Source: Escherichia phage vB_EcoM_ESCO8. From it: a DNA stretch of 64,000 nt. Made by a program: the position numbers and the translations under genes. The first letter of the stretch is position 1. Each line of letters begins with the position of its first letter. The notes beneath the pieces are model-generated. The model saw only the letters and a list, made by a program, of their open reading frames with translations. It did not search any database and was not told the DNA's origin. This document shows positions 9,086 through 62,888 of this stretch, one piece after another. The stretch lies in the sequence record OM386653.1; one strand, 5' to 3'.

Positions 9086-9167
9086 TGGCCGGGGTGACAG
9101 GATTCGAACCTGCATACTCCAATTACTCGGTTAACGCCTGATTAGAAGTCAGGTGAGATACACCCCG
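9086..9167 (-). tRNA. Atypical tRNA-like gene (UCU-type anticodon hairpin, no canonical D arm)
   Basis: Perfect 7-bp acceptor and canonical T-arm TTCGAAT; internal hairpin CCTGA-CTTCTAA-TCAGG. Confidence 0.35.
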
Positions 9168-9178
9168 TTTTCATAACG

Positions 9179-9208
9179 ACTATAACAAAAAAACTAAGTA
9201 AATGTCAA
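9179..9208 (-). promoter_or_regulatory. Sigma70-like promoter candidate for tRNA array (TTGACA-N18-TATAGT)
   Basis: Read on reverse complement; -10 ends ~12 nt upstream of the first tRNA-like gene. Confidence 0.35.
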
Positions 9209-9224
9209 GACATTTTTTAGGTGT

Positions 9225-9310
9225 TGGTGCAAGTGGAGGGATTCGAACCCTCAATCATTTAAGCGTTGCGTTTTAAGCACAATGTGTATCACCAATTCCA
9301 CCACACTTGC
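9225..9310 (-). tRNA. tRNA-Leu(UAA), type II
   Basis: Perfect acceptor, T-loop TTCGAAT, anticodon loop CTTAAAA. Confidence 0.6.
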
Positions 9311-9341
9311 ATATAGGAGATGCATAGCACCTCCTTTTAAA

Positions 9342-9417
9342 TGGTGGTTCCCCAGGGTTACAATCCCTGCCCTCGACACTTATGAGGTGTGCGCTCTCGT
9401 CAGTGAGCTATGGAACC
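9342..9417 (-). tRNA. tRNA with CAU anticodon, non-canonical T-loop
   Basis: D-arm GCTC/GAGC, anticodon loop CTCATAA, T-loop ATTGTAA. Confidence 0.45.
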
Positions 9418-56338: not shown

Positions 56339-56720
56339 GATTTTTAATCATAGTTTCTCGACAGAGATTCCACATGTCCGAAGCAACCATAGAGGCATAT
56401 TCATCGGGGTTGGATTCTGGTAAAATCTCTTTAACTGCTTCTGGTGTCGGGTTGCACATAGCAGGTAGTGCTTTAAGTGCATCTTCAATAGAGAGCTTCT
56501 TACCTTCACTGTAAATAACTTCGTAAGCATAGTCATTTACATCTTCTGGAATATCTTGATCCAGGTAACGCACAGTAGAGTTATGCATTTTGTTCATAGC
56601 TTCACTAACACCAGCGCCACAAAGCTGTGCAACTTCTTTAGAGATACAGTCACAAATAACAACTTCATAAGGTTGTCCACCATAATACTGTGCATTATAT
56701 TTGATTTTAACAGACCACAT
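56316..56720 (-). CDS. Hypothetical protein
   Basis: ORF track. Confidence 0.45.
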   Translation of the reverse strand: MWSVKIKYNAQYYGGQPYEVVICDCISKEVAQLCGAGVSEAMNKMHNSTVRYLDQDIPEDVNDYAYEVIYSEGKKLSIEDALKALPAMCNPTPEAVKEILPESNPDEYASMVASDMWNLCRETMIKNLVEMAHE

Positions 56721-56786
56721 CTTACTCTCCTTATTTAACGTGTTTTAGCAATTCAATGCGATGCCCTTCAAACATAATCTCTTTCA

Positions 56787-57371
56787 TTACACATCCTCCA
56801 TTTGGAACATCTTCTTGTGGTTAGAATAGATCTGTTTGAAAATCTTGTCAAGGCGTTCATATGATTCTTTATGCTCTTGTTTCCATCCGTGATTTCGGAT
56901 TTTATCTGCTAGGTCATACGCCTCGCATAAAACTTTGGCAAAGTTGGTATTATCTATAGCACAAGCCTCAAAACCTTGAACTAAACCCTCTACATCATAC
57001 CACGTATAGTCAGAGTCACTAGGAGGCTTTCCTGCATCGGCTAAACGTTGCCTCACCCATTCGATACGTTTTTCATTCAAATGGCACTTACCTTCTCTAC
57101 ACTCTTGTTCTAATTCTTCTTTAGATTCATTGAATGGGTGAAGGACAGGTAGCTCTGCTTTTTGCAATTGCTCCAGATATTCTCCTACAATACGCATAGC
57201 TTCACTGTGTGTACACTTTCTACCTGTGTGCCAGTAACGGAAGATACTTTCTGTTAAACAGATGTTTTTACTAAACATCGCATTGTCTTTAACATTCACT
57301 CTATTAGCCCAGTCTAAATAATATACATAAAACTGCAATAATTCATAACTGCTTGGTATAATTTTACTCAT
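56787..57371 (-). CDS. Paralog-family protein A (LLQFY / LHPFN / CHxN / WVxxR motifs)
   Basis: ORF track; shares motifs with 57995..58363, 60287..60661, 60802..61218. Confidence 0.5.
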   Translation of the reverse strand: MSKIIPSSYELLQFYVYYLDWANRVNVKDNAMFSKNICLTESIFRYWHTGRKCTHSEAMRIVGEYLEQLQKAELPVLHPFNESKEELEQECREGKCHLNEKRIEWVRQRLADAGKPPSDSDYTWYDVEGLVQGFEACAIDNTNFAKVLCEAYDLADKIRNHGWKQEHKESYERLDKIFKQIYSNHKKMFQMEDV

Positions 57372-57549
57372 AGCCTCTCCTTAATTGTGAAAAATGTTAT
57401 CAATCAATATGACTAGTAATACAAGGATAGAAGGGAGTAGGAACAGAAATCTTAACATTATGTGATGCGTGTGAGAAGCGGCTTTAGCGCCAGCCGCCAG
57501 TAAGCCTACTAATCCTACAATAAAGAGCAGTTGTTCAGGGACACCCATA

Positions 57550-57774
57550 TTATGGAACACTTGGATACTCCGTAAGTTCGGCTAACAATTGGATATGTGG
57601 ACACGTGAATTGTTGTCCTGGATAGCGTGAGCTAATATCATCCAGCAAAGCAATCACAGCATTGTGCAATGCTTCGTAATCTTCATAATACACCATCTCT
57701 CCATTAGGATCTTCAACAATATCACAGTGACAAGCGTGAGCAGTACACGCATCCCATTCCAGACGTTTTACCAT
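57550..57774 (-). CDS. Small Cys-containing protein (CDIVxDPxG family)
   Basis: ORF track; paralog of 52772..53044. Confidence 0.45.
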   Translation of the reverse strand: MVKRLEWDACTAHACHCDIVEDPNGEMVYYEDYEALHNAVIALLDDISSRYPGQQFTCPHIQLLAELTEYPSVP

Positions 57775-57783
57775 AAACCCTCC

Positions 57784-58032
57784 TTACTCATACATTTGAT
57801 AAGATACATAACGATTGCAATCAAGTGCGAGAAACTTTTCAGCATTTCTTTGATGCTTGAACACAATACACTGTTCTTTTTTAGCTGCACTTTCACGAGC
57901 TTCTCTTGCCATATACTCACCTAAACGAACGATACCAGAGAATAACACGTATGCAAGAATAAGACAAACAGTGATTGCACAGAAAGTTTTAAACTTAACC
58001 ATTGTATTCCTCCATATCACGAATACGATCAA
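57784..58032 (-). CDS. Small membrane-anchored protein (KExCIxxKH family)
   Basis: ORF track; paralog of 53696..53920. Confidence 0.45.
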   Translation of the reverse strand: MIVFVIWRNTMVKFKTFCAITVCLILAYVLFSGIVRLGEYMAREARESAAKKEQCIVFKHQRNAEKFLALDCNRYVSYQMYE

Positions 58033-58363
58033 TCACCCATTGTACACGTTCTTTATTAAGGTGTGCAATGCCTAGCTCTGTTTCCGTAAAGTAGTGCGAG
58101 AAATCCGTATTAAACGGATGTAAATGGTTCAAACCCGCTTTCTTAAATTGTTCCTTCATTTCCTCTCGTACAGAGGATTGGAGCTTTGATACATTCTCAA
58201 CATCTTTTATCCAAGCAATATTGTATAAGAAGTCTACAAGACACGTGCAAAGACCATAATGCTTTTTGCTAAAGTTTGTATCTTCTTGTTCTAACCACCA
58301 TTCATAAAATTGTAGCAAATAGGGGCTGCTTTTCATGTTACACACTTTATTATTTTCTTGCAT
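57995..58363 (-). CDS. Paralog-family protein B
   Basis: ORF track; motifs LLQFYEWW, GLCTCL, LHPFN, RVQWVIDRI. Confidence 0.5.
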   Translation of the reverse strand: MQENNKVCNMKSSPYLLQFYEWWLEQEDTNFSKKHYGLCTCLVDFLYNIAWIKDVENVSKLQSSVREEMKEQFKKAGLNHLHPFNTDFSHYFTETELGIAHLNKERVQWVIDRIRDMEEYNG

Positions 58364-58372
58364 GGTTTCTCC

Positions 58373-58672
58373 TTAATGCCAATCTACGATCACTGAATCT
58401 ACAAAACCCTCTTTGGTGTTTAAAGCATACACCTTACTAAGCCCACGCTCTCGTAGTGTTTCCATAGCAAGATCAATCAAATCAACTTGTCGTTTCTTTG
58501 CTTGTTCATTTTTTGGATAGTCATCCAAACCGAAAACAGACGGTTTAAATGCTTTGGAGTATTTGCCAGTCTTAGCCTGATCATAACAGTCCTGAATAAT
58601 TTCCTCAATAGGAAACCATAAACCTTCTCCACTTTGCTTTGCAATACAACGCAGTTTTTCTGTAACAGTCAT
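58373..58672 (-). CDS. Hypothetical protein
   Basis: ORF track. Confidence 0.45.
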   Translation of the reverse strand: MTVTEKLRCIAKQSGEGLWFPIEEIIQDCYDQAKTGKYSKAFKPSVFGLDDYPKNEQAKKRQVDLIDLAMETLRERGLSKVYALNTKEGFVDSVIVDWH

Positions 58673-58881
58673 TCTTCCTCTCCTTTCAATTTACACTCAA
58701 AGATACCATTCTTAATGTTATCTGTCAAATAAAGACTATCTTCTATCTCTTCTTTTGTATACACATAAGCCTCCTTTTCCACGTCTGTCAGACCTTGCAT
58801 CGGAGCTAGTAGCCACCAGCTCCGCCAGTCAAACATAGGAGACTTATCAGATACACGAAGAATGTATCTGTCATTACACAT
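58669..58881 (-). CDS. Hypothetical protein
   Basis: ORF track. Confidence 0.45.
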   Translation of the reverse strand: MCNDRYILRVSDKSPMFDWRSWWLLAPMQGLTDVEKEAYVYTKEEIEDSLYLTDNIKNGIFECKLKGEEE

Positions 58882-58884
58882 ATA

Positions 58885-59337
58885 TTATACGATGTTCACA
58901 CTAATATCTGCAACACCAACAAGAGAATAGATTTCAACTACACTCTGTGTACGATCCAGCTTGTAACGTTTCGCCTCTTTTTCAACTTCCTCATGGGAGA
59001 TGGTTTCCATGATCGGAACTCCATCCACTACAAGCAGGTATTTCTCTTCGTGTTTACTTTTTGGTGCTTCCTCTAAGACTTCTACAAAATACTCAAACTC
59101 ACTTTTTGCAAGCAACGTGTAACACTGAAGAAAGTCTCCTTCATTTTGAGCGATAATTTCTTGTTCTCCTGCTAAGGATTGCAAAGCAGTGACACCATAC
59201 CAATCATCCACATCTAATACACGAAAATAGGAATCACCTAAAAAAGAAGCAATCCTACTATTGCACTCAGACACATTAGCAAACTTACGGATATAAGATG
59301 CGTTCTTAAAACGATACACTTTACCAATTTCAAACAT
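58885..59337 (-). CDS. Hypothetical protein
   Basis: ORF track. Confidence 0.5.
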   Translation of the reverse strand: MFEIGKVYRFKNASYIRKFANVSECNSRIASFLGDSYFRVLDVDDWYGVTALQSLAGEQEIIAQNEGDFLQCYTLLAKSEFEYFVEVLEEAPKSKHEEKYLLVVDGVPIMETISHEEVEKEAKRYKLDRTQSVVEIYSLVGVADISVNIV

Positions 59338-59539
59338 TACACAACTCCTTATTGTTCAAGGGTAAAAGGAATGATTTCACCATAGCTGTATTGCATGGCA
59401 TTCACTTCTGCTTCTGCACGTTGTGCTAGTTCTAGTGTTGCACAGATTTTGTAAGGTACAGTGCTGCATTGGCTCCAGCCTGGGGTATTCTTTGTTACTA
59501 AGTACACAGTAGTTTGTTTATCCATCTTCTTTTCCTCTT

Positions 59540-59797
59540 TTAAACAGTATATTCGTGTGGAAGGAAAACATAGTCTTCTCCTTCAACAACATCAACTACT
59601 TTCCACTTCCAGCCAGGTACTTGGCTCATTGTCTTGAATGACACATAAGCAACTCCGCTGTAAGCGATATCGGCATCTAATATAAGAGGGAAAGCAACGT
59701 GTGTCAACCCCAGATAACCACAATTATTTTCAATACACACCTGAATGCTTTTCATGTTATGCTCCATTAAAGACGGGGCGCGTAGCGTTACGTTCAT
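59540..59797 (-). CDS. Hypothetical protein
   Basis: ORF track. Confidence 0.4.
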   Translation of the reverse strand: MNVTLRAPSLMEHNMKSIQVCIENNCGYLGLTHVAFPLILDADIAYSGVAYVSFKTMSQVPGWKWKVVDVVEGEDYVFLPHEYTV

Positions 59798-60215
59798 CGT
59801 TCACTGTAATAAGGTTTTTCATAACCATAACACCCTGAATATAGCCTAGCCAACGATGGCGTTTGGTTTCAGACATACCATTACACCCATTCTGAATTTC
59901 ATTCAACATCCACAGTAAGTGGGAAACACCTGTTTCACTGGTATCTGGATCTTCTACAGAACTAAGAATAGTTTCATAGCGTTCACAAATTTCTGGGTAG
60001 AATTCATAATCCTGTTGTACATCTCGCATTTCTCGAATGAAGTGACGAGCAATAGGCTTCCCACGAAAATATTCATTGATGAAATCAATAACACACATCT
60101 CACTGCCTGTCACCACGGAAGGCGTTCCTATGTTAAATTGAACACTCACACCGCATTCTTTTACAAGATTATGTACACGCTCCGTGTTAGCAAGATACAA
60201 AGATACAGTTTTCAT
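59757..60215 (-). CDS. Hypothetical protein
   Basis: ORF track. Confidence 0.5.
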   Translation of the reverse strand: MKTVSLYLANTERVHNLVKECGVSVQFNIGTPSVVTGSEMCVIDFINEYFRGKPIARHFIREMRDVQQDYEFYPEICERYETILSSVEDPDTSETGVSHLLWMLNEIQNGCNGMSETKRHRWLGYIQGVMVMKNLITVNDERNATRPVFNGA

Positions 60216-60286
60216 TTACACCTCTCATTAGTAGTTTTGTTATGCGCGATATTGCATATTTTATGGAACACAGTGTACAGGCATTT

Positions 60287-60661
60287 CTATTCAATGCAAG
60301 CATTATTTGCATCTTCGATTCTGTCTTTCACCCATTGAAGACGTAACGTGTTGGTATGACACGCCAAGTCTATACACTCTGAAAGGTAATCCATGCAATC
60401 TGCATTGAACGGAAGATTGTAGTCCAGTCCTGCACATGTAAATTGTTTCCTCATTTCGTATTTCAAACTATCCAACAAACGATCACGCCATCTTTTATCT
60501 TCTTCTCTAGTTACCTCACCAACAAAATCATCTACATAATCTACCAGACAACCACATAAGCCACTCGTTGTGCGATTCATTGCAGGATGGTTGGCAATCC
60601 ATGCTTTATAGAATCGTATTAAAGCTGCACTACTCAACGGAATATTACTTTTCATGATCAC
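60287..60661 (-). CDS. Paralog-family protein C
   Basis: ORF track; motifs LIRFYKAW, GLCGCL, LPFN, RLQWVKDRI. Confidence 0.5.
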   Translation of the reverse strand: MIMKSNIPLSSAALIRFYKAWIANHPAMNRTTSGLCGCLVDYVDDFVGEVTREEDKRWRDRLLDSLKYEMRKQFTCAGLDYNLPFNADCMDYLSECIDLACHTNTLRLQWVKDRIEDANNACIE

Positions 60662-60827
60662 CTCCTAACTTAAGTATTCTACCTAGCAGATAAAAGAATG
60701 CCTGTATTGCACTAAGGAACATACACAAAATAATAAGAAGTCCGAAACCGACAAAACCTGCTTTTATCATTAACCAAACTATTCCAACCAATTCCCACAT
60801 TCTACACACCCTTACATGAATCGGCAA
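60645..60827 (-). CDS. Small membrane protein
   Basis: ORF track; hydrophobic; start uncertain. Confidence 0.35.
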   Translation of the reverse strand: MPIHVRVCRMWELVGIVWLMIKAGFVGFGLLIILCMFLSAIQAFFYLLGRILKLGGDHEK

Positions 60828-61218
60828 TACGATCTTTCACCCACTGCAATCTCCCTGGGTTCGTATGGCAAGAATGTTTCTTACCTTCATCTTCATAACA
60901 CAGAAGATCATCATTAAAGGGCAGGAAGGAGGATAGCCCAGCACACGTGAATTGCAATTTCATCTCTTCCAGCGTTTTGCTACGAACCATTTTGAAATGT
61001 TCTATATCTTCTTGCGTAGGCTTTTTCTTTGACATAGCGGATGCCAGATAATCCATAAGGCAAATACACAAACCAACATTCTCACGATGCATTGAGGAAT
61101 GATCTTCCATCCATGCTTTGTAGAATTCTAACAGCAGTGGACTGCTAAGAGGAACACACATATCAGACTCCTTTATAAGATTACGTTTCATGCCACACAT
61201 CATATAGCATCTTTTCAT
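60802..61218 (-). CDS. Paralog-family protein D
   Basis: ORF track; motifs LLEFYKAW, GLCICL, LPFN, RLQWVKDRI. Confidence 0.5.
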   Translation of the reverse strand: MKRCYMMCGMKRNLIKESDMCVPLSSPLLLEFYKAWMEDHSSMHRENVGLCICLMDYLASAMSKKKPTQEDIEHFKMVRSKTLEEMKLQFTCAGLSSFLPFNDDLLCYEDEGKKHSCHTNPGRLQWVKDRIADSCKGV

Positions 61219-62840
61219 CTGTTACAAGAACAGCAACATAGGAACATCATTAATGAAGGATTTAGTATAGGATTTCCCTATCAATTATTCTATATATACC
61301 TATTATTTTTAACACACCCCTTTGTACATAATATAGACAAATAAATATCTATGCCACAAAAATTTTCCGGTATACCCGATTTATTTCGACACACCCCCTT
61401 TTCATAAACGTAAAGTCAATAATATCAATAACTTGCCGCAAAATACTGCTCGCTTGCGAGAGGTGCTTAACGCGATTTTCAGCGCCCCCCGATTTCTGCC
61501 GACCGTCCCCCTCAAATATCAATGAGAATTATTATCATTTGCATTATCATTCAATGACTTATAAGACTTTTGATTATTTTCTGAGCAAGAAAGGCACTAC
61601 TCACAACAAAACAGATAAATTCTAAGTAAATCAATGGCTTGGCATTTCTAAACATCTATATACACCTTGCCAAATGAAATGATCTGGCGTGAAATAGTGC
61701 CACCCGTGGAAGATAGCTGATAATGATTCTCATTTGCATACTTTCTGTACTATAAAACCGACTAAAAATCAAGATAATTCTATTTTATTGCGCTTTTAAG
61801 AAAGTAGGCTCAACAAATGGTAAGTTATATTGCAACAAATAGGGATAGTTATGCCCGACAAATAACAACAATAGTATGAAAAATCATCTATTCGGATGTA
61901 AATAATTTTGCGCAATAGCACTGTGTTCCCATAGCGCCCCCTGGAGGGTGGCGCATTATGATCATCAATGTCATTATTCACCATGTTTATTATTGCATAG
62001 CTTATATTATAGCCAATGTTCTAAACATTAGCTAATAATAACGCACCGCAACAATGTAAGGGAATACAATATACCATGTATATTGTTGCGCTTGCAATTG
62101 TTGCAAGCTACATAAGCACAGATAATAACTATCGGTGATGGTTATTATGTGGGGTGTGTAGTTGCGTTATTATTAGCCGCCTATGTGTCCGGCATAGGCT
62201 GCTAATGATACGCTTGCGAATTATATTTCTTGTTATAGTTATTGTATGGAATGATTACTGTATGAAATGATTATTTAGGTAATAGATAGGAAGGTAAAGA
62301 TTAGATCATAAATAGATAGGATATTAATTATTTAGTAATGTTACTAACAATTTAATAGTTACTTTGTGCAACAATTCGATAGATTATAGTTATAGTTTTA
62401 AAGGTTAGATAGATTATATTTAGCTTAGTAATGATTTATATTGGTTATTGTTGTTTAATATAAGGTTATCAATGAGATAGTAACAGTAAGTTATAAATAA
62501 AGGTGAGATAATTAGTTTTAATTTAGTTAGATAACTTATTATTTTATAGGTTAGATGGTCATAAGTTAAGAATGATTATCATTATTGCATTATGCAGTTT
62601 ATTGCATAAATAATCAGCTATAAATAAGAATGATTATCATTTAAGAGGAAAGACAAGAAAAAGGCTGTTTTTTCCCGATAGTTACATTGAGAAATTAAAA
62701 ATAAGCGGTCTAAAACACGCTGTAAGCGCCTTATGATCTTCATGGTATGGTTGTTCATCTGCTCCTTGATTAGCTCGATACCGCGATCTATTCACTTTTT
62801 TCGGTGAACGTTTTTGATAGGTAAAAGCTATCATATTTAT

Positions 62841-62872
62841 TTAGGTAAAAAGAAAGGGCGCTTTGTGCGCCC
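62841..62872 (-). terminator. Rho-independent terminator on minus strand (GGGCGC-TTTGT-GCGCCC + T-run)
   Basis: GC stem then TTTCTTTTT on minus strand, immediately downstream of 62889..63272. Confidence 0.6.
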
Positions 62873-62888
62873 TGGTATGAAATGTTAT

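Follow-up and report, generated by a model that had tools for sequence, protein, structure and literature searches.

A cluster of four paralogous genes in Escherichia phage vB_EcoM_ESCO8 belongs to a large, repeatedly amplified family of phage proteins with a predicted five-helix domain

Results

Four minus-strand genes encode copies of one domain

The four genes described here lie on the minus strand of a 64-kb stretch of DNA from Escherichia phage vB_EcoM_ESCO8 (OM386653.1), the whole of which we refer to as the window (64,000 nucleotides). These genes, A (56787-57371), B (57995-58363), C (60287-60661 as an open reading frame, ORF) and D (60802-61218 as an ORF), are members of a large, phage-restricted protein family that is already catalogued but uncharacterized. 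Small early accessory genes are common, and it is the tendency of this family to be amplified that is notable. An initial annotation of this DNA had proposed that the four ORFs form a local paralog family because their products share motifs in a fixed order, and this proposal is borne out by BLASTP, by a MAFFT alignment and by a family hidden Markov model (HMM).

Each pair of proteins was matched by BLASTP, with expectation (E) values of 1e-11 (A-B), 2e-8 (A-C), 9e-9 (A-D), 4e-21 (B-C), 3e-26 (B-D) and 3e-33 (C-D), at 31-46% identity across aligned stretches of 48-115 columns; the A-C and A-D matches span only the C-terminal ~50 residues. In the MAFFT alignment of A-D, 23 columns are invariant and occur in the same order in all four proteins. 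When the family HMM was run with all filters off against the ORFs in all six frames of the window, only A-D were recovered (E 3e-63 to 2e-38), and the next-best ORF had an E value of 0.43.

The BLASTP values and the separation achieved by the family HMM indicate that the shared motifs reflect homology rather than low-complexity coincidence. The alternative, that the motifs arose by chance or from low-complexity sequence in ORFs that are unrelated or non-coding, is given no credence here, as it is also contradicted by the annotation of orthologs as coding sequences in every relative and by the confident fold prediction described below. From these sequence comparisons, we conclude that A-D are true paralogs of one domain. 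The ordered motifs that were initially noted are common to the set, but A lacks the GLCxCL element (KNICLTE is found there), and B has AHLN instead of CHxN.

The gene bounds that were initially assigned to A and B stand, but those of the last two genes are the longest ORFs. The longest ORF of C reaches a GTG at 60661, and its start is most probably the ATG at 60655, which yields a 122-aa protein (60287-60655, minus strand) preceded by an AGGAGG ribosome-binding site. Similarly, the longest ORF of D reaches 61218, and its start is most probably the ATG at 61161, which yields a 119-aa protein (60802-61161, minus strand) preceded by AAGGAG. These starts are favored because a Shine-Dalgarno sequence lies ahead of each and because they agree with the 369-nt and 360-nt coding sequences annotated in relatives. 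C is of the phAPEC8 gp244 type (family HMM E 2.6e-63, phrog_2510 E 4e-24), and D (family HMM E 6.9e-52, phrog_2510 E 7e-21) is the first gene of a leftward block.

B (57995-58363, minus strand) encodes a 122-aa ortholog of Phi92_gp006, as which it is annotated in phage PATM (family HMM E 2e-44, phrog_2510 E 1.4e-25). The product of A, an ortholog of Phi92_gp010, has 194 residues, and the family domain is at its N terminus (residues 1-115; 57027-57371, minus strand; family HMM E 1.5e-38, phrog_27059 E 1.6e-138, phrog_2510 E 6e-17). The remaining ~80 residues of A (56787-57026, minus strand) form a C-terminal extension that is without a counterpart in B, C or D in the alignments. Three helices are predicted for this extension with a low predicted local distance difference test score (pLDDT, 50-72); searches with it found no homologs besides orthologs and only weak PHROG matches to families of unknown function.

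The family is nearly restricted to phages

A-D are direct sequence members of the PHROG families 2510, 27059, 6418 and 2176, catalogue entries that are all labeled "unknown function" and have neither a Pfam model nor a structure; each of A-D matches the first three, and the matches of the window proteins have E values of 1e-17 to 1e-138. No match for A-D exceeded any curated cut-off in Pfam or NCBIfam. Annotations of A-D in relatives read Phi92_gp006, Phi92_gp010, phAPEC8 gp244-like or "hypothetical protein" and give a function for none of them, and a search of the literature on phrog_2510 and N4 gp3 found no functional statement. Among 109 wider members that were aligned, phrog_2510 was matched by all, phrog_6418 by 102 and phrog_27059 by 91.

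When 1.84 billion cluster representatives were searched exhaustively with HMMER, 899 proteins had E<=1e-3, of which 227 had E<=1e-10; most were 95-130 aa long. The use of one distant member as a tblastn query located 626 places in 211 phage records, or about three per genome, while only 1 of 72,556 plasmids carried a copy. By the distribution of these matches, the family is nearly restricted to phages. The copy numbers are lower bounds, as they count the places matched by one distant query: 4-7 in phAPEC8-like, 1-4 in phi92-like and 2 in rV5-like phages. A related-locus search with a narrow alignment of the family returned only four loci.

Named members of the family are Phi92_gp006, Phi92_gp010, phAPEC8 gp244, N4 gp3 and PTXU04 gp85-87, and the family could be named the N4 gp3 / Phi92 gp006 family. 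Further carriers include N4-like phages, 42-61-kb phages of E. coli, Klebsiella and Salmonella, phages of Achromobacter, Erwinia and Rhizobium, and the jumbo phage BcepSaruman; a structure search of BFVD adds phages of Pectobacterium, Burkholderia and Delftia. The N4 gp3 homolog is a clear member (E 1e-18), and in N4-like genomes homologs map to the early region, inside the first 1.5 kb. Elsewhere, homologs are found in uniformly unannotated blocks of small genes, and a 322-aa mosaic protein encoded in the nin region of a lambdoid prophage contains the domain.

One high-scoring protein was rejected as a member. P0037 (2115 aa) has an E value of 4e-25 against the family profile, but this score arises only from 23 weak repeats at profile positions 71-93 (each E ~0.4-7), so the match is probably false and the protein an unrelated one with repeats.

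Family genes are repeatedly duplicated and fused

The window, with its four copies, is one example of a wider pattern, as two to five family genes are present at 6 of 10 diverse loci. A phAPEC8-like contig contains three overlapping tandem family genes plus one more, the three genes for PTXU04 gp85-87 overlap by 11 nt each, and one metagenomic phage has five family genes within 4 kb, at least two of which encode double-domain proteins. In 12 of 146 representatives, a single polypeptide contains the domain two or three times, with some copies partial.

The closest relatives of these copies are other copies from the same genome (48-57% identity in PTXU04, 48% for C and D, and 40% between halves d1 and d2 of P0055), which argues that the duplications were largely independent. 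As judged from these comparisons, the most distinctive property of the family is that it has been amplified repeatedly, lineage by lineage, as tandem genes or as domain fusions. Recurrent tandem amplification and domain fusion of this family are not described in the annotations or literature that we searched. A search for a shared partner gene across the ten diverse loci found none besides the family itself.

The domain is predicted to be a five-helix protein with a conserved core

The AlphaFold2 model of C has a pLDDT of 91.5 and a predicted template modeling score of 0.84 and contains five helices. The same five helices are present in the model of A, in which pLDDT is 90-97 over residues 11-110. 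Based on these models, we confidently predict an all-alpha domain of ~110 residues with five helices. Pfam matched 0 of 109 family members at E<=0.01, searches of PDB sequences with profiles of 4 or 109 family sequences gave no useful match, and in structural comparisons all scores were below significance, with no structural relative of known function.

Conservation was assessed over the 109 aligned members, with residues numbered as in the 122-aa C protein. The near-invariant positions are Ser9, Leu12, Phe15, Tyr16 and Trp19 in helix 1; Gly32-Leu33-Cys34 and Leu37 at the start of helix 2; Glu67, Met68, Gln71, Phe72 and Ala75-Gly76-Leu77 in helix 3 and at its end, followed by the loop Pro82-Phe83-Asn84; Tyr90 and Glu93 in helix 4; and Asn102, Arg105, Trp108, Val109 and Arg/His112 in helix 5 and its cap. 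Tyr16 and Arg105 are present in all 109 sequences, Cys34 in 108, Trp108 in 107, Gln71 in 106, Glu67 in 102 and Asn102 in 99. In helices 1, 2, 3 and 5 these positions are spaced i/i+3/i+4/i+7, a pattern that suggests a single stripe facing the core, along with residues for capping and salt bridges. Both sequence and length vary greatly between residues 38-66 and 85-99.

The conserved positions could instead mark a site of activity. One alternative is that the domain is a small enzyme or binds a conserved ligand, with a pocket for a universal small molecule, such as an immune signaling nucleotide (a "sponge"), and with paralogs that differ in ligand preference. Known nucleotide sponges are likewise small early phage proteins. 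This alternative is supported by the large number of near-invariant polar and aromatic positions for a 110-aa protein, among them Tyr16, Arg105 and, at the N terminus of helix 2, Cys34, and by the conservation of the polar ones across phages of alpha-, beta- and gamma-proteobacteria, which are very different hosts. We nonetheless consider it unlikely. His100 (78 of 109), Cys99 (56 of 109) and Cys36 (14 of 109) are not invariant, which makes a Cys-His catalytic pair or a zinc site unlikely, and the family does not share the fold of Acb2, Tad1, Tad2 and similar nucleotide sponges with solved structures.

Another alternative is that these proteins serve the phage itself, as regulators or adaptors that act early by binding nucleic acid or the transcription and replication machinery of phage or host, for example as helix-turn-helix-like or sigma- or RNA polymerase-binding proteins that tune the early program. 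The absence of significant structural scores and the mildly acidic character of the family (median pI 5.2 and median net charge -4; 0 to -5 for the window proteins) weigh against this proposal, as do the presence of 2-7 copies, the loss of copies between close relatives and the dispensability reported below, none of which is expected of a regulator. A partial region of B resembles Crl (PF07417/NF008217), but the scores of 13.1 and 15.5 bits are far under the curated cut-offs of 27 and 117, and A, C and D gave no match to Crl; this likeness was treated as chance because it is below cut-off and confined to one paralog. A regulatory role thus also appears improbable.

Presence and sequence vary at the C/D locus

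The 6-kb stretch around the paralogs is 95-98% identical to that of more than 50 Escherichia phages of the genus Justusliebigvirus, which comprises phi92-like myoviruses of the Stephanstirmvirinae with genomes of ~146 kb. Four records (MG065645, MG065689, MG065639 and MG065656) that are labeled "Campylobacter phage", with Campylobacter jejuni given as host, match 98% of the query at 97% identity; probably, either these host labels are wrong or the preparations were contaminated.

The initial annotation had described the family as fast-diverging, and this description fits one locus and one series of alleles. Identity in ten relatives is 95-99% for A and B, as for the flanking genes, and 91-99% for D. 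Three of the 10 lack C, and presence/absence polymorphism is confined to the C/D locus. An unusual spread of sequences is likewise confined to the C-type alleles, which are 63-99% identical. The paralogs, at 24-46% identity to one another, are old, and the family as a whole is old and diverged.

When 17 C-type alleles were compared with C of the window, mean identity was 57% over residues 42-62 and 71% over residues 86-104, against 75-91% in the N- and C-terminal parts. Many of the diverged C-type alleles (P0002-P0024; positions 60287-60330 of the window) end in the same 11 residues, RIEDANNACIE. These identical ends suggest that recombination has a fixed boundary at the 3' end of the gene and that the middle of the gene is exchanged like a cassette.

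The paralogs lie in a block of small, largely unannotated genes

Both GC skew and ORF orientation place A-D in a minus-strand gene block that extends from ~50 kb to 61.2 kb of the window, and the GC skew changes sign near 62 kb. As initially described, this is a region of small genes; the leftward block around A-D is almost wholly without annotation. Upstream of D is an AT-rich non-coding region of 1.65 kb (61219-62880, annotated on the minus strand) without a sizeable ORF, which is probably the promoter and regulatory region of the leftward block. Matches to a sigma-70-like promoter were not enriched over shuffled sequences in a scan of 56-63 kb, and Rfam contained no RNA family that matched within 56-64 kb.

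A 17-mer (TAAGAATGATTATCATT, with variants) occurs four times in this non-coding region, at 61523-61539, 61718-61734, 62567-62583 and 62625-62641. The copies resemble the E. coli Fur box, and two of the sites fit GATAATGATAATCATTATC with <=3 mismatches, compared with 0.03 expected by chance. They may indicate that the control of this early block responds to iron or to Fur, or they may be a phage operator that merely resembles a Fur box.

Three small minus-strand ORFs with long hydrophobic stretches adjoin the paralogs: 60645-60800 (51 aa) next to D and C, 57381-57560 (59 aa) next to A, and 57784-58002 (72 aa) next to B. Two of the three have no PHROG match. The 51-aa ORF, identified by direct reading of the sequence, begins 1 nt past the stop codon of D, overlaps the start of C by 11 nt, has no PHROG or Pfam match and is present in only 3 of 10 relatives (absent from 7).

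Two other minus-strand products in the block gave weak matches to PHROG families with a named function. The 74-aa Cys/His-rich protein encoded between A and B (57550-57774) weakly matches a "Lar-like restriction alleviation" family (E 7.7e-4), and the N terminus of a 150-aa protein (58885-59337) weakly matches a "goF mRNA metabolism modulator" family (E 1.9e-6). In both cases, families of unknown function match far more strongly.

In most relatives, the 687-nt gene Phi92_gp011 ("ead/Ea22-like" in JLBYU50; 3732-4418 of locus L001) sits between a gp012-like gene and A. This gene is missing from the window at 56720-56787, and phages AMO3598 and EC.P2 are also without it. At 6630-9417 of the window (minus strand) is a cluster of 16 tRNA genes, including three for tRNA-Met, two for tRNA-Leu and two for tRNA-Ser, as is usual for this group of large myoviruses.

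Published phenotypes of carriers argue against an anti-restriction role

A further alternative is that the family consists of anti-restriction factors, either DNA mimics or restriction-modification inhibitors like Ocr and ArdA, that are made first to protect the incoming genome. In T7, Ocr occupies a corresponding early position. This alternative gains from the location of D as the first gene behind the non-coding region and from the homologs within the first 1.5 kb of N4-like genomes. It is weakened by a net charge of only about -4, which is far from that of a DNA mimic, and by the lack of any PADLOC, Pfam or structural match to Ocr, ArdA or KlcA.

In the published BASEL study, Vequintavirinae and phi92-like phages were "exceptionally susceptible" to restriction-modification, apparently without effective protection (PMC8594841). 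These restriction-susceptible relatives carry 2-7 copies of the family, which argues against a broad anti-restriction role. Such a role is thus already largely refuted by published phenotypes, and we regard it as very improbable.

The three PTXU04 members have been included in a CRISPRi-ART knock-down screen, in which PTXU04_00085, 00086 and 00087 were each scored "Not Fit" and remained "Unknown" after the authors' annotation with HHpred and AlphaFold (PMC11879866, supplementary files 8 and 16). Based on this published screen, the three PTXU04 copies are dispensable.

Discussion

Our results delimit a family of phage proteins around A-D of vB_EcoM_ESCO8. We tentatively favor, as somewhat short of probable, a model in which the domain is a non-enzymatic binding scaffold, made of a conserved core and two variable patches, that targets host or defense proteins early in infection. 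The conserved residues would build the helical core of a cytoplasmic protein-binding scaffold, and the two variable patches, one comprising the loop between helices 2 and 3 and the first part of helix 3, the other the region of helix 4, would form its recognition surface. Each diverged copy would then bind and neutralize a different host protein, most plausibly a defense or abortive-infection effector, early in infection. The copies may also act in pairs, as suggested by the tightly packed adjacent genes of some phages and the fused double or triple domains of others.

A host-takeover or anti-defense role is plausible, as the initial annotation had proposed. We infer early expression from the position of D, which follows the 1.65-kb non-coding region as the first gene of the block, and from the homologs in the N4 early region. 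The accessory character of the family is seen in the "Not Fit" scores of the PTXU04 copies, in the lack of C in 3 of 10 relatives and in the lack of any co-occurring gene family.

Several points weigh against the binding scaffold. No partner, phenotype or defense system is linked to any member, and the proposed mechanism derives from anatomy and analogy. In the ten relatives, the A and B orthologs are conserved like their neighbors, so these two loci carry no sign of an ongoing arms race. The polar residues Tyr16, Glu67, Gln71, Asn84, Glu93, Asn102, Arg105 and Arg/His112 could, from their conservation, equally be a ligand-binding or active site. The "Not Fit" scores of PTXU04 could reflect the redundancy of its three copies instead of an accessory role. 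The idea of pairing is affected by the alignment of the fused two-domain protein P0035, which placed every single-domain sequence on its first half and thus supported that half only.

A bolder extension of the scaffold model is that the five-helix domain is an unrecognized modular inhibitor scaffold that phages of many lineages have independently amplified into arrays and fused into double or triple domains to neutralize several host immune effectors or signals simultaneously, as a viral counterpart of poly-immunity loci, with the C and D pair made first. We consider this conceivable but doubtful.

If the scaffold model is correct, one uncharacterized domain, which over 200 sequenced phages carry at about three copies per genome, would explain a recurring block of "dark matter" genes, and the variable patches of a compact scaffold would report which host proteins these phages must disarm. 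The carriers include therapeutic-type phages of E. coli and Klebsiella (phi92-like, phAPEC8-like, rV5-like and N4-like) as well as the model phage N4. The family is well delimited for functional work: its model is confident, members that are tractable by experiment are available in the BASEL phages Bas60-62 and in PTXU04, and C is naturally present in some relatives and absent from others. Should the inference about function fail, the homology of the motifs and the extent and boundaries of the family stand, and anti-restriction is removed as a likely role.

Among known anti-defense systems, a comparison of A-D with PADLOC-DB and with known anti-defense families gave no credible match; the sole PADLOC match, to Cas12d at 12.6 bits, is spurious. 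The one anti-defense gene reported for Justusliebigvirus, Atd1, encodes a MazG-like pyrophosphatase (10.1101/2022.06.09.495361). A-D have no match to the MazG Pfam family and were rejected as relatives of Atd1.

As a functional analogy, the family is closest to arrays of small immunity or antitoxin-like proteins and to the exchangeable C-terminal modules of lambdoid Ea22 and DUF551 proteins. Ea22 proteins are described as mosaics with exchangeable acidic C-terminal modules of unknown function (PMC10834534). Variable, "portable" C-terminal modules are a feature of the Ead/Ea22-like and DUF551 proteins in the lambdoid exo-xis and nin regions, and the domain described here also occurs within long mosaic proteins of a lambdoid nin region. 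In relatives of vB_EcoM_ESCO8, an Ead/Ea22-like gene adjoins A, and a gene annotated as DUF551 adjoins the Ead/Ea22-like gene. The neighboring 134-aa protein is annotated as DUF551 in JLBYU50, and in our search it had no Pfam match that reached E 0.01. DUF551 is also a fusion partner of the family domain in proteins of the Av-05 type (E 2e-8 for P0074), and it was the only Pfam match in ten fusion proteins, found in one fusion partner. The domains of Ea22 and of the family differ, however: the Ea22 C-terminal domain has been solved as a dimer of mixed alpha-beta structure, and the family domain is predicted to be all-alpha. None of A-D matched Ead_Ea22 or DUF551 (PF04448) in Pfam.

In bacterial conflict loci, small immunity or antitoxin-like proteins occur in tandem "poly-immunity" arrays. 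The family differs from these arrays in its location in a phage early region, without an adjacent toxin and without a Pfam immunity match in 109 members, so the likeness is one of functional analogy only. It resembles them in the size of its presumably cytoplasmic proteins (~100-120 aa), its arrays of diverged paralogs, its frequent head-to-tail fusions, its combination of a conserved scaffold with variable patches and its variation in copy number from one close relative to another. Among phage proteins, T4 AsiA and Acb2/Vs.4 are small, all-alpha early inhibitors or sponges. The family is like them in size, helical fold and dispensability on laboratory hosts, and also in early expression, as deduced for the family from the position of its genes.

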